A DNA stretch of 64,000 nt from Eledone cirrhosa (taxonomy: Eukaryota), in the NCBI GenBank assembly GCA_964016885.1, contig OZ024757.1:27404001-27468000 (forward strand), read 5' to 3'. Every line of letters starts with the position of its first letter. Within the stretch, counting starts at the first letter, position 1. The notes below the pieces were generated by a model, which was given only the letters and a program-made list of their open reading frames with translations, searched no databases and was not told where the DNA came from. The position numbers were made by a program, and so were the translations under genes. This document shows, in pieces, positions 4,007 through 62,199 of this stretch.

Positions 4007-4070
4007 GTCTAATGATTTCGGAATATATATATATATATATACACGATATTAAATAAATGGAAACTATATT

Positions 4071-4135
4071 TATTTCATTATACATATTTCAGGGATACCA
4101 AATTAAAATATGGTATGCCTTCATCATACAAAATA
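4071..4135 (-). ncRNA. Degenerate hammerhead, same family as 10271/61855 (core ATGATGA)
   Basis: Minus strand tattttgt ATGATGA aggcatacca..tggtatccct GAAA TATGTATA atgaaata. Confidence 0.6.
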
Positions 4136-4645
4136 CAATATATAAACAGTTTTATAAATAATTTTGACGTACCCTATTAGATGCGACCATTATTTTTGGA
4201 AACTTGTCGAGTGCTTTATATCAGTTATAAAATATTTACTTGTTGTATCCCAACAATTTTAAATAGAACTTTTGCATATATATATATATATATATGGTGT
4301 GTGTGTATGCCAGGTTCAATTGAGGGTAACCACCGTAAGTAAGGTACTCAATATGTAGCAGAGTATAAATATTTGTAGTCCTGTAGAAGCCATTTCTGTT
4401 ATACACACACACACACACACACATATATATTATAACTGAACTAAAAAGAAAAACGAACACAGATATTTACATATATGTGTTCAAATCGTAATGCACCAGA
4501 ATCGCTAAGGTGAAAAAAATACTAACTACAGACAGTATGGTTTGCCAGACTCAATTTAAGAATAAATCAAGAAAAATAAATCTTTCTTCTTAGAGCTAAA
4601 TTACTGTAATGAGACTATTTTGAGTTTCTAACTCAATACATGCCT

Positions 4646-6260: not shown

Positions 6261-6472
6261 TATAAAGAAAACGAAAAATCAGTGATCCATCTGGACTTAG
6301 TTTATTTCGTGTTACAAATGTTTCGCCGGCATGTAGCTCGAGTCAAGAACCCGCAGAAGTAGAATCAGCCAGATCCATACAAGGACCATGACTCGAGCTA
6401 CATGCCGGCGAAACATTTGTAACACGAAATAAACTAAGTCCAGAGCATCACTGATTTTTCCTTTTCTTTATA
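6261..6472. repeat. Inverted repeat, ~85-bp arms, 43-bp spacer
   Basis: 6261-6345 versus 6389-6472; family copy at ~3790-4010. Confidence 0.9.
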
Positions 6473-6671: not shown

Positions 6672-7014
6672 AGACGGCGATGAATTTGTTTTGTGGTTTT
6701 TTTTTCTATGAAATCGTGTGTCGAAACAAATATTGTTACACTTGGGGAGTCATATTGTTGTAATAATATTGCCAGAAATAATAACAGAACACACTCACTG
6801 TTTGGTTGGTTTTCGCTTCTGCATACTTTATATCTCCATAGTTAATTCATTCGGCCATCAATGTTGATCATTGACTGACTAACGGTAAAAAATACAGATA
6901 TAAATATATATATATTGTCTAACAAAGTTCTTTCGTTGCAACATCATCAATAGGAGGAAACATGATAATAGTATCACTGATGATGTTCCAGATGTGCAAC
7001 GAAAGAACTTTGTT

Positions 7015-7020
<6 letters not shown>
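6672..7020. mobile_element. Non-coding copy of the Penelope pseudo-LTR family of 28897-30650
   Basis: acggcga..gaaatcgtgtgtcgaaacaaatattgtta..aatacagata matches 28897-29132. Confidence 0.85.
6973..7014 (+). ncRNA. Minimal hammerhead, same family as 30403
   Basis: atca CTGATGA t GTTCCA gatg TGCAAC GAAAG aa CTT^ tgtt; a partial inverted copy lies at 6917-6949. Confidence 0.6.
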
Positions 7021-7049
<29 letters not shown>

Positions 7050-9822: not shown

Positions 9823-10124
9823 TACAGAATAATCAAAACTATGTTCAAAACATTTTATTGGTGATAATGGTTTCTTCCAAACGAAAGTTTGGAATCATCG
9901 GAGCACTAGCAAAGTTTAGACTTATAATTAACCTCCTATTCCACAGAACAATTGTAAAGTTACGTAGATATTAGTGTTGTCATTACCAGTATATATATAT
10001 ATATATACATACATATATATATAAATATATATATATGCAAAAGTTTTATTTAAAATTGTTGGGTTACAACAAGTAAATATTTTGTAACTGATATAAAGCA
10101 CTCGACAAGTTTTTGGAGTAGATA

Positions 10125-10379
10125 TACGATATTAAACAAATGGAAACTATATTTATAAAACCATATTTATTTCATTATACATATTTCAGGGATACCAAGG
10201 CAGCCTACTAATTTAATGGTCGCTTATATTATGGTACGTCAAAATTATTTATAGAACTGTTTATATATTGTATTTTATCTGACGAAGGCATGCCATATTT
10301 TTAATATGGTATCCCTGAAATATGTATAATGAAATAAATATGGTTTTATAAATATAGTTTCCATTTGTTTAATATCGTA
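10125..10379. repeat. Inverted repeat, 73-bp arms, 109-bp spacer
   Basis: 10125-10197 is the reverse complement of 10307-10379. Confidence 0.9.
10271..10336 (+). ncRNA. Minimal type I hammerhead ribozyme, same family as 61855
   Basis: tattttat CTGACGA aggcatgccatat-loop-atatggtatccct GAAA TATGTA TA^ atgaaata; stem II differs from the 61855 copy but still pairs. Confidence 0.8.
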
Positions 10380-12543: not shown

Positions 12544-12681
12544 GTGTATATATATGTAGGAGGTGAGTTTTATTGTAGTACAATAAAGCAATGCAGATAT
12601 CGGATAAGAAGCACTCTACAGTTTGTACGACTGGAGTATACATAATATATAAGATCAAAAGATGGTTAAATGAGTTCCATG

Positions 12682-12752
12682 TATTTTATTATGCGCATTT
12701 CAAAAACAAATATCATCATGCAATAACATTTGTGTTTTCATCAGATAAAATA
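12682..12752 (-). ncRNA. Minimal type I hammerhead ribozyme (mirror copy in palindrome)
   Basis: Reverse complement of 12869-12939. Confidence 0.85.
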
Positions 12753-12868
12753 GGAGGACATGATATGAAGGTTAAAAAACACTTGTGGATAGTGCAGTTT
12801 TAAATCAACATATTGATTTAAAACTGCACTTCCCACAAGTGTTTTTTAACCTTCATATCATGTCCTCC

Positions 12869-12939
12869 TATTTTATCTGATGAAAACACAAATGTTATTG
12901 CATGATGATATTTGTTTTTGAAATGCGCATAATAAAATA
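12869..12939 (+). ncRNA. Minimal type I hammerhead ribozyme, intact core
   Basis: tattttat CTGATGA [~16-bp stem II] GAAA T GCGC A TA^ ataaaata. Perfect 8-bp stem I and a palindromic stem III/loop (TGCGCA). Confidence 0.85.
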
Positions 12940-13094
12940 CATGGAACTCATTTAACCATCTTTTGATCTTATATATTATGTGTATATATATATATACATA
13001 TATATATATATAGTAAAAGAGAGAGAGAGAGAGAGAGCAAGTGAACAAGAGATATAGAGGAAGAATCAACCCCAGTAATGGAATTGCCCTTTTT

Positions 13095-26973: not shown

Positions 26974-27180
26974 AATACGTAGTTAAGAAAGCCACAACAA
27001 TGCAGAGGGAAATCTCGAGGTAGGAAGTGAATGATAGATAGGAGAAACAGGTGAAAGTGAAAATTGAGGGAGACAATTTGACTCTCTCAATTTTCACTTT
27101 CACCTGTTTCTCCTATCTATCATTCACTTCCTACCTCGAGATTTCCCTCTGCATTGTTGTGGCTTTCTTAACTACGTATT
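26974..27180. repeat. Near-perfect palindrome, 103-bp arms
   Basis: Centre at 27077; mismatches only near the apex. Confidence 0.95.
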
Positions 27181-28691: not shown

Positions 28692-28727
28692 TCTTCTGAT
28701 GAAGGACTAGCGTCCGAAACGTTAAGA
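28692..28727 (+). ncRNA. Minimal hammerhead ribozyme, dimer-type stem III (AACGTT)
   Basis: tctt CTGATGA a GGAC tagc GTCC GAAAC GTT^ aaga. Confidence 0.8.
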
Positions 28728-55118: not shown

Positions 55119-56019
55119 TATATGTCTTTTGCGGTTGTAATTGCTGGGGTGGGGAGTAGGTCTGAGAATCTACCCCCTACAAAAATGCTCTTGGCTTGCA
55201 TCTGATACTGTCTCTAACAACCGAAGCCCATCCCCTGGCCTTACCATGCCAGAGATGTTTGGAACTGACAAGGAGAAGGGACGAAAGTGTGTTATTGGTC
55301 CCTGAAAATCAGTAGACAAGACTCACCAGCTTGGCTGGTAATTTGTCTAGGAGAAGCATCACTCTGATTTTAAAACCAGGGAAGATGGGTCTCCTTAGTC
55401 ATATTTATAACAACCAATCTATACGCTAAAGCAGAGGTTCTCAAAGTGGGCGCTACTGCTCCCGGGGGGGGGGGGGGTGAGAAGGTCCAGGAGGCACTGC
55501 CTATACTATAATAGTATATTAAATATCAGATGATACATATATATAGAGATATAGTAAAATAAAAAGATATATAATACATAATATTTATTTAAACATAGTA
55601 TGTATTATATTATCTCCTTATAATATATAACCAGCAATTTCTCTGTCTGTCCGACAGTGGAAACACGTGCGCTCGTGCGAATGTTTTTTGCGCACGCGTA
55701 AAGAGAGAGTGAGAGTGAAAGAAAGAGACAGACTACGAGAGGGGGATAGCGGGAGGGAGAGAGGGAGAGAGAGAGTGAATAGACGCTAAAACACGTGCGC
55801 GCGTGCGAATGTTTTTTGCGCACGCGTAGAGAGAGAGAGAGTGAGAGTGAAAGAAAGAGACAAAGTACAAGAGGGGGATAGCGGGAGGGAGAGAGGGGGA
55901 ATTGAGGAGTGCTACAGAAACATATATACATTTCTGTGTGTGTGTAATATATATATATATATACACACACAGAAATATATATATATACACACAGAAATAT
56001 ATATACATTTCTGTGTGTG

Positions 56020-56110: not shown

Positions 56111-56188
56111 GAAATATATATACATTTCTGTGTGTGTAATATATATATATACTAGCAGAAAACCGCCCACCGAGTGGTTTTCTGCTAG

Positions 56189-56776
56189 TCTATATATATA
56201 AAACTGAGGATGTCTGTCTGTGTGTGTGTGAGTTTGAATCCCTAAAACTAGAGAAGCACCCAACCGACTGTTTTCAAACTTTACACATGTAATACTTCTG
56301 TTTCAGGGAGTGTTCTGAGCAAAAACAATTTCAAATTTTCAATGCCCTAGGGTCCGCATTAGGCGATTTAGCGATCTCTCTCTATAATTCTTAGTCTTTC
56401 TCTTTTTAGATAGATACATACATATAACGTCGCGCCCTTATAATATCTGTCTGTATGTCTAGCTGTCTGCATTACGTCACTTTCTACAATTCGTTCTGCG
56501 CCCAGAACGCACCCTTATAATATCTGTCTGTATGTCTGGCTGTGCTGCCTCCGGTTATTCTGCCACTCTTGCTCAAGATAAATCTCACACTCATTCCCCA
56601 AGCAGTTGGTAAGTGCACACAACTTATTCCTCACGTTTTAAGCCAGTGTTGCTTACTTACGTACCACCAGACCCTTACTTCTTTGCCAGCCGTGGTTGTG
56701 GCAATACTAAGCTTAGCTAAGGCGGTTATATATTTCACAATACCTTATCCCGTGCAACGCTGGGTACCACTGCTAG
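56189..56776 (+). mobile_element. Non-autonomous Helitron-like element
   Basis: 5' TCtatatatataaaa; 3' hairpin cccgtgcaacgctggg followed by CTAG at 56773-56776. Confidence 0.75.
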
Positions 56777-61200: not shown

Positions 61201-61385
61201 AACGAAGGAGTTGTGGTAAGGAACCAGATGGACCATAACACACCAGAGTATTCAATACTTAGGGTAGTAGAGTGGGTAATAGGAAAATGTTTGACCCCTA
61301 CGGCAGAGCTCAAGCCGTTTCGATGTCTCAGAAATAGCCGTAGAAACGGCTTGAGTTCTGCTGTCGGGGTCAAACATTTTCCTAT
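61201..61385. repeat. Fold-back cassette with 43-bp arms (61279-61321 / 61343-61385); family copy at 54943-55073
   Basis: Direct sequence comparison; contains the HHR 3' half GAAACGGC..GCYGTC. Confidence 0.85.
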
Positions 61386-61629
61386 ATATATATAGATATA
61401 GATAGATAGATAGATAGAGGCAAACTGCGACAGAAAGAGAGAAATGGATAGTTGAATAGAGAGCTAGCTATATATATATATATATATATATTTATTAAAA
61501 TAATAGATTAAAGTTTAAGCAAAGAATCGCTGCTTTCACCCCTAACGAGATCTTCTGTAACTAAAAAAAATCATATATATATATATATACGATATTAACA
61601 AATGGAAACTATATTTATAAAACCATATT

Positions 61630-61694
61630 TATTTCATTATACATATTTCAAGGACACCAAGTTAAATTATGGTGTGCTTTCATCAGATAAAATA
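61630..61694 (-). ncRNA. Minimal type I hammerhead ribozyme (mirror copy in palindrome)
   Basis: Reverse complement of 61855-61919. Confidence 0.8.
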
Positions 61695-61854
61695 TAATAT
61701 AGAGCAGTTTTATAAATAAATATTGACATACCCTTAAAGAATGCAACCATTACTGTTGGAAGCTCCCGGATAGTCCTATCCGGGAGCTTCCATCAGTAAT
61801 GGTTGCATTCTTTAAGGGTATGTCAATATTTATTTATAAAACTGCTCTATATTA

Positions 61855-61919
61855 TATTTTATCTGATGAAAGCACACCATAATTTAACTTGGTGTCCTTG
61901 AAATATGTATAATGAAATA
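61855..61919 (+). ncRNA. Minimal type I hammerhead ribozyme, intact core
   Basis: tattttat CTGATGA aagcacacca-loop-tggtgtcctt GAAA T ATGT A TA^ atgaaata; 8-bp stem I with one G-U pair. Confidence 0.8.
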
Positions 61920-62199
61920 AATATGGTTTTATAAATATAGTTTCCATTTGTTAATATCGTATTTTTATTCCAATTATTTGTTGAGGGCTTTATATCAGTT
62001 ATAAAAATATTTGCTTGTTGTATCCCAACAATTTAAATAGAACTTTTACATATATATATATATATATAGAGGGAGAGAGAGAGAATAGTGTGAAAAGCTA
62101 AGGGGGGGAGGGTTAGAAAAATACAGTATAGAGGTGTAAATCAGAAGTAATATTGTTGGCTTGTTAATGTCTGTGTGTCTGTAGAGAAAGAGTATAAGA

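Follow-up and report, generated by a model that had tools for sequence, protein, structure and literature searches.

A head-to-head Penelope-like palindrome with hammerhead motifs in Eledone cirrhosa, and its likely origin by twin priming on a sense RNA

A palindrome at 61587..62049 of the window, the whole 64,000-nt stretch of Eledone cirrhosa DNA analysed here, is an insertion of a Penelope-like element (PLE), short and headless, with the pseudo-LTR (pLTR) doubled head-to-head. We put at about 78% the probability that it is a 5'-truncated insertion of a PLE with Hydra-type motifs, its two pLTRs set head-to-head in a (TA)n tract, likely by two primers on a capped, uncut sense RNA. This reading builds on the parent element, the layout, two fixed 3' ends, a 5' hot spot, an extra G and stem covariation, all observed in the genome. 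The 61587 copy alone is ordinary; the value lies in its family.

The arms (61587-61773 and 61776-61962) measure 187 bp each, with a 2-nt spacer, TC, and one mismatch (61756/61793). Re-derived coordinates all agree with the geometry given in a first-pass annotation of this DNA, which described 187-bp arms, a 2-nt loop and about one mismatch. The structure is asymmetric. The left arm (61587..61773, minus strand) is an inverted tail-less pLTR copy with a short 3' end ~50 nt beyond the hammerhead cleavage site; the right arm (61776..62049, plus strand) is a direct copy that runs from +2 to a long 3' end and alone extends into a tail of ~87 nt (61963..62049). This tail runs on into the ORF in complete elements, with an ATG ~40 nt beyond the tail end. 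The insertion site is a (TA)n tract that both outer ends abut (61573..61589 on the left, ~3 nt of it shared with the arm end, and 62050..62068 on the right). On the minus strand the spacer (61774..61775) reads G then A, an extra G followed by the left arm's initiator-like +1 base. Each arm contains a type I hammerhead motif: 61855..61919 on the plus strand, with predicted cleavage after 61911, mirrored by 61630..61694 on the minus strand, with its core start at 61686 and predicted cleavage after 61638. The arm mismatch at 61793 is an A-to-T change at +19 that completes a small hairpin; the same change occurs on one arm at 4 loci and is rare genome-wide, the T allele standing at 1/100 and 2/100 among the matches listed. 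Reading this mismatch as a sign of two different source RNAs was rejected: the T allele is rare, the query used had enriched it, and other polymorphic sites are concordant within pairs.

A genome search with a single arm, in which 40 candidates were scored, gave best matches of 92-100% identity on many chromosomes. The whole unit lies immediately 5' of an ORF with reverse transcriptase (RT) and GIY-YIG domains at 7/20 ORF loci, with a partial unit at others. Three loci selected as complete elements (L180-L182) comprise an inverted tail-less arm, a pLTR, the ORF and a pLTR with tail; at 3.7, 4.1 and 4.2 kb, their units exceed 3 kb because of a long 3' UTR. The three display the trait of nuclease-bearing (EN+) PLEs of a single RT + GIY-YIG ORF between direct pLTRs; a second such trait, an inverted 5'-truncated copy with a tail at one end, is seen in the 61587 copy, in L180-L182 and in 21/24 classed pairs (below). 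Every element ORF seen is broken, and the window holds no match to the element ORF. Pfam returned no RT match on the ORF, and GIY-YIG only below the cut-off (E=0.0025). The long 3' UTR of complete elements carries its own (TA)n and purine-rich tracts (L031, 3158-4290 and 6820-7930), a possible further source of microsatellites in the genome, and L031 also has an asparagine-rich stretch between RT and nuclease.

The parent is a Penelope-like element with protein motifs of the Hydra clade, its putative home. DKT replaces DKG (VKSDKT in P0001, L040 and L047), and the L031, L040 and L047 translations show a CxCX5C linker, a C-terminal GIY-YIG without CCHH, and CxxC and CxH near the end, motifs that recur in most longer homologs. 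The 23 homologs share the element's motifs, one of them labelled Octopus bimaculoides; the N-terminal RWK position reads RWR in P0001 and 4/23 homologs, and RWK in 5 others. A related-element fragment, P0022, is publicly annotated as a GATA zinc-finger protein 14-like, likely a mislabel. Two further Hydra-clade traits are present: insertion at (TA)n targets, and a pLTR that contains a hammerhead. As described in the available text of PMC8557442, the Hydra clade (Hydra-1_Obim, Penelope-13_HM) shares with our family DKT, the CxCX5C linker, the C-terminal GIY-YIG without CCHH, CxxC and CxH, as well as (TA)n targets, a hammerhead near the 3' end and an inverted 5'-truncated copy at the 5' end. The differences are an AUA triplet here, whereas the Hydra motifs listed there are all GUH; RWR rather than RWK in P0001; 3.7-4.2 kb against 'generally <3 kb', a descriptive and not a diagnostic figure; a tail of ~90 nt against 30-40; and tens of thousands of motifs here, against 4 copies noted there as ending at one site (PMC8557442). 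Since the hammerhead sequence listed for Hydra-1_Obim differs, the family is distinct from that element. The Naiad clade (N-terminal nuclease, DKA, no canonical hammerhead) was rejected, the nuclease here being C-terminal, with DKT and a hammerhead. Non-LTR retrozymes, with at least 2 tandem hammerhead units, were likewise set aside: the copy is head-to-head, and close same-strand neighbours of the same family are rare and mostly flank an ORF.

In the right-arm hammerhead, stem I pairs 61855-62 with 61912-19, the core occupies 61863-69 and stem II spans 61870-99, followed by GAAA (61900-03), a self-complementary stem III (61903-10, 3 bp) and an AUA ending at 61911. The CUGANGA core, GAA, A15.1-U16.1, H17 and three stems of type I are all present. 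The core was part of our search pattern, so its invariance among copies is by selection. For the covariation analysis, 258 motif copies were grouped into 36 types at >3 edits, and removal of 1 false match left 35. Across these types 94.1% of cells are paired, with double changes at 10/20 pairs, and the covariation score is 0.385, against 0.221 for shuffles and <=0.202 for slid alignments. When changes were placed on a tree derived solely from flanking sequence, 10 same-branch compensatory events were counted at six selected variable pairs, against <=4 in 265 column re-pairings; the count of further pair types is not above shuffles (337/500). RNAalifold found stem I and the base of stem II, missed stem III and returned a weak energy of -0.71 kcal/mol. 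The common types have a self-complementary stem III, a feature constrained by the search pattern, and this stem is absent from the predicted monomer fold. The structure-preserving variation proposed in the first-pass annotation is borne out by the flank-tree events, and its hammerhead identity and predicted cleavage after AUA at 61911 are supported by core, stems and covariation. With identity, cleavage position and structure-preserving variation supported, the source elements are likely under selection for the fold.

The motif departs locally from the usual form. The usual G10.1-C11.1 pair is absent: among the 35 types, pair 10.1-11.1 is A-U in 27, G-U in 6, G-C in 1 and unpaired in 1. Position 4 of stem II is C opposite C or U in 34/35 types, and this mismatch (61873/61896; alignment A1 columns 21/50) is invariant after three stem II pairs while the neighbouring pairs covary; it may serve a tertiary or protein contact. 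The stem II variants earlier described at 10286 and ~4100 are as given, with double changes between subfamilies at pairs 2 and 6, but the stem is not fully paired, all three copies having a C-C mismatch at position 4. Rfam reported no match at gathering score in the whole window, and around the palindrome at E up to 10 it gave 12 sub-threshold chance matches, no hammerhead among them; minimal PLE hammerhead motifs have been detected by descriptors in published work. The minimal type I PLE hammerheads of PMC4209133, in its available text, likewise have a long stem II and a short self-complementary stem III suited to dimers, and form compensatory families and opposite-strand pairs 100-700 bp apart, mostly truncated. 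Our motifs differ from those in having A-U or G-U for G10.1-C11.1 (33/35 types) and in the unvarying pyrimidine mismatch at position 4 of stem II.

In the 275-nt right arm alone, stems I and III do not form in the predicted ensemble (P about 0.001), and a transcript across the whole palindrome is predicted to fold into a single 187-bp hairpin, with all hammerhead stems at probability 0. The hammerhead is likely a passenger in the palindrome copy and in the source RNA likely works as a dimer. As to the 'twin hammerheads' first reported, the 61587 copy does contain two whole motifs, but they do not make a two-ribozyme device, since they lie on opposite strands, with one sense hammerhead per transcript. 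The copies run straight through the cleavage site, and the template would therefore have been uncut or re-joined.

A strict pattern (core, stem II base, stem III and parts of stem I) matched the genome 26,008 + 25,530 = 51,538 times, and the reversed pattern 0 times. These 51,538 motif matches take in several subfamilies and a second family, of the 12877 type; about 9,000 are given for the richest genome in the available text of PMC4209133, where search methods differ.

Two classes of 3' end emerged among the first 100 motifs on C1: 50 short ends, 30-66 nt past the cleavage site (most 43-56), and 42 long ends at 118-160 nt, with 8 neither. Motif neighbours within 6 kb are divergent in 30 cases, convergent in 5 and same-strand in 11. 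Removing two between-family pairs, one internal pLTR and one cross-pair reduced the divergent pairs from 30 to 26, and 24 were classable. Among these same-family pairs, 21 combine a short with a long end, 2 are short + short and 1 is long + long (p=1.4e-4); the 3/24 that are not short + long count against the model proposed below. Either arm may carry the tail. Arms of true pairs differ by 1.7-2.0%, against 4.1-4.8% between loci (two families), and haplotype alleles are mostly common to both arms, which indicates that the arms come from one source element. For the Anolis PLE in vitro, two internal RT start sites, extension of both strands and uncut RNA as the main substrate have been described (PMC11167929), and our short and long 3' ends fit two such sites.

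At the palindrome centre we mapped 5' ends on long reference copies for 243/257 copies; the other 14, in two small groups, had no reference. Among the 243, 29 lie exactly at one A (+1), 66 within -2..+4, 5 in -10..-3, and 78 read through; in an unbiased subset, 24/94 fall within -2..+4. A single initiator-like base accounts for about 30% of 5' ends. Genome-wide, the 61587 family has 361 copies that start at +1, without the upstream C, against 896 keeping it, and the second (12877) family has 1,926 starts at +1 against 4,515 read-through and 171 starts at +5; these +1 to read-through ratios are approximate because the patterns differ in their leading filter. Of the +1-start set of the 61587 family, 8/100 among the matches listed are point mutants, and 2/100 among the matches listed have the exact junction of the 61587 copy. 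Two families show a strong +1 peak, the rest a weaker one. The inversion point does differ among the 61587, 10286 and ~4100 copies, as previously noted, but genome-wide it concentrates at a hot spot and is not random. The earlier argument for independent insertion from those inversion points is therefore wrong genome-wide, although different loci and (TA)n flanks support independent insertion itself. At L004, L010, L015, L022 and L028, copies of different subfamilies are often adjacent within one (TA)n tract.

The +1 A sits in an initiator-like word; as the predicted start it corresponds to 61774/61775, 88 nt ahead of core C3, the distance being 69 nt in the 12877 family. Most subfamilies, though not the 12877 family, have a pentamer at +27 or +28, which we take to be DPE-like and a candidate promoter element; in the 61587 copy it lies at 61801..61805 (+27 to +31, counted by hand; +28 to +32 in sister subfamilies). 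A 9-nt word at 61817-61825, ~45 nt 5' of the hammerhead core, persists in most subfamilies amid divergent flanking sequence and is a further candidate promoter element. Drosophila virilis Penelope and Adineta Pen2a have an internal pLTR promoter with initiator and DPE (PMC2377424, PMC3846280), to which the initiator-like word and the pentamer would be candidate counterparts, and the Pen2a initiator TCACT equals the initiator-like word here.

The base before +1 is G in 42/100 matches of the 61587 family and 63/100 of the second family among the matches listed, against 10/100 among those listed for a +5-start control (all hand counts); ~46/100 control rows represent one microhomology junction, and without them G is found in 10/54. 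Thirteen of the 42 G of the 61587 family, and many in the second family, are also readable as the last base of the opposite arm. In 5 listed matches of the 61587 family the G stands between pure (TA)n and +1. Short arms carry the G in 11 cases and long arms in 5, and 2 loci have it on both arms. In the 61587 copy, the spacer TC corresponds to the extra G plus the left arm's +1 base; read-through copies have C at the G position. An extra G is a known trace of mRNA cap copying (PMC4038843), and we infer that it represents a copy of the RNA cap; a non-templated C added at an uncapped end could be an alternative source. Because the palindrome centre lies on the likely transcription start of the element, the data suggest that both halves were copied from a capped, uncut RNA. 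Start site, cap and cleavage are deduced here from DNA.

We propose that the nuclease of the element would cut both (TA)n strands, and that each cut 3' end would serve as primer for reverse transcription from either of two internal start sites, ~50 and ~140 nt past the hammerhead site, on a capped sense RNA left uncleaved by its own hammerhead. Both cDNAs would reach the transcription start of the internal promoter, often gaining a C opposite the cap, and their 3' ends would be joined head-to-head, often via microhomology. Mini-copies would result when priming falls in the 5' pLTR of the mRNA, complete elements when it falls in the downstream pLTR. The Poseidon element of Anolis (PAc) also has two internal RT start sites bounding its tail and AT-rich targets, and the cutting and extension of both strands on an uncut RNA template described there is what we propose here; PAc belongs to another clade, with its tail inside the ORF, and the available text on it leaves 5' junctions and the inversion aside (PMC11167929). 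More generally, we lean towards the view that PLE inverted ends arise by twin priming on capped, sense, ribozyme-uncut RNA, and that thousands of palindrome centres map the cap site to the base.

The strongest rival invokes the same element, with the inverted arm made by self-priming on an antisense transcript or by fold-back of a single cDNA; we regard it as unlikely, yet worth weighing. It has been suggested for head-to-head PLE palindromes (PMC3846280), and it fits the haplotype alleles that paired arms mostly have in common, their smaller divergence relative to copies from separate loci, and the short self-complementary words at some junctions. In the 61587 copy, however, the G and +1 base lie on the tail-less arm, which is unable to template the tail, and a G in that place is not explained by fold-back of one cDNA. 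G is also found on short and long arms alike, 2 loci having it on both. Nor does antisense self-priming predict a hot spot at a sense-strand initiator-like base with G. Considerably less probable is an independent non-autonomous element, either MITE-like or a retrozyme, for which the entire palindrome is the unit copied. Identical junctions at several loci (L014, L015, L021; 12 alike among the matches listed) fit it, but most junctions vary by a few bases around one hot spot and the recurrent ones lie on microhomology, no tandem units occur, the sequence is the pLTR of an RT element, and the tail may be on either arm. Even more improbable is a two-ribozyme or long-hairpin RNA device selected by the host: although both cores are intact, the arms 99.5% identical and a 187-bp hairpin predicted, there are tens of thousands of similar copies, high arm identity fits a young age, the hammerheads are on opposite strands and all hammerhead stems have pairing probability 0 in the full transcript. 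Assembly or long-read fold-back is known to produce near-perfect palindromes, and no listed contig spans the 61587 locus, but an artefact is the least credible reading of all, given that the arms are unequal, end at fixed biological positions and differ by one mismatch, that (TA)n and unique flanking sequence lie to either side, and that short-read contigs contain joints matching inverted junctions of other copies.

Layout, hammerhead, opposite-strand pairs and compensatory families are already published for PLEs; what is new here is a very abundant family. The D. virilis Penelope and Pen2a elements also have an inverted pLTR with an optional tail; their junction palindromes were read as antisense self-priming, and the available text describes no hot spot or extra G (PMC2377424, PMC3846280). 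Non-LTR retrozymes are also short non-coding PLE derivatives with type I hammerheads, defined as tandem, whereas our copies are head-to-head (bioRxiv 10.64898/2026.07.22.740005). A 2026 octopus repeat annotation (PMC13282606) lists Penelope-like families, its main text being without hammerhead, ribozyme or Hydra; its supplements or repeat libraries may hold the family. A literature search on octopus hammerheads and PLE priming, covering few subscription papers, found no report of the 61587 family or of a start-site hot spot with extra G. How PLEs form inverted ends, which RNA strand is copied and what the hammerhead is for are described as open (PMC3846280, PMC8557442). Recorded at base level in thousands of young junctions, the pattern here speaks for a sense template that was capped and uncut, and it yields a prediction of the exact start site. 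If true, twin priming would settle the sense-versus-antisense template question for the Hydra-type clade and would show that the hammerhead does not make the template's ends. The genome also contains hammerhead motifs in very large numbers, together with many long inverted repeats, which could form double-stranded RNA if transcribed.

The window contains further relatives. A sister-subfamily insertion at 10036..10379 has a tailed minus-strand arm cut inside the hammerhead and a tail-less plus-strand arm with one whole hammerhead (core 10279). Another at 4042..4276 combines a tail-less minus-strand arm with a damaged core and a plus-strand tail fragment; its single hammerhead, in the ~4100 copy, has a core reading TATGATGA, with C3 lost. 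Among these three copies, twin whole hammerheads are found at 61587 and not in the other two, which have one hammerhead each. A related family that the first-pass annotation had missed, at 12555..12981 (left limit approximate), has 169-bp arms, two hammerheads (12744, minus; 12877, plus) and its tail on the left arm; ORFs of this family are 52-54% identical to those of the 61587 family. Microsatellites swamped the output of an inverted-repeat search across the whole window, and a search of phage DNA gave no match. Hammerhead-like cores of other families lie at 28696 (+), 54478 (-), 48161 (+) and 44933 (+), none of them reported by Rfam. Hairpins with 25-95-bp arms at 6290-6444, 6898-7037, 26974-27180, 55914-56014 and 56140-56200 are possibly other PLE ends. 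Lastly, 200 bp to the left of the 61587 copy, at 61201-61385, lies another palindrome flanked by (TA)n, which belongs to an unrelated family and has 43-bp arms and a one-sided extension; it shows the same tail-and-inversion layout, and its relatives lie beside several loci (e.g. L005, L010).
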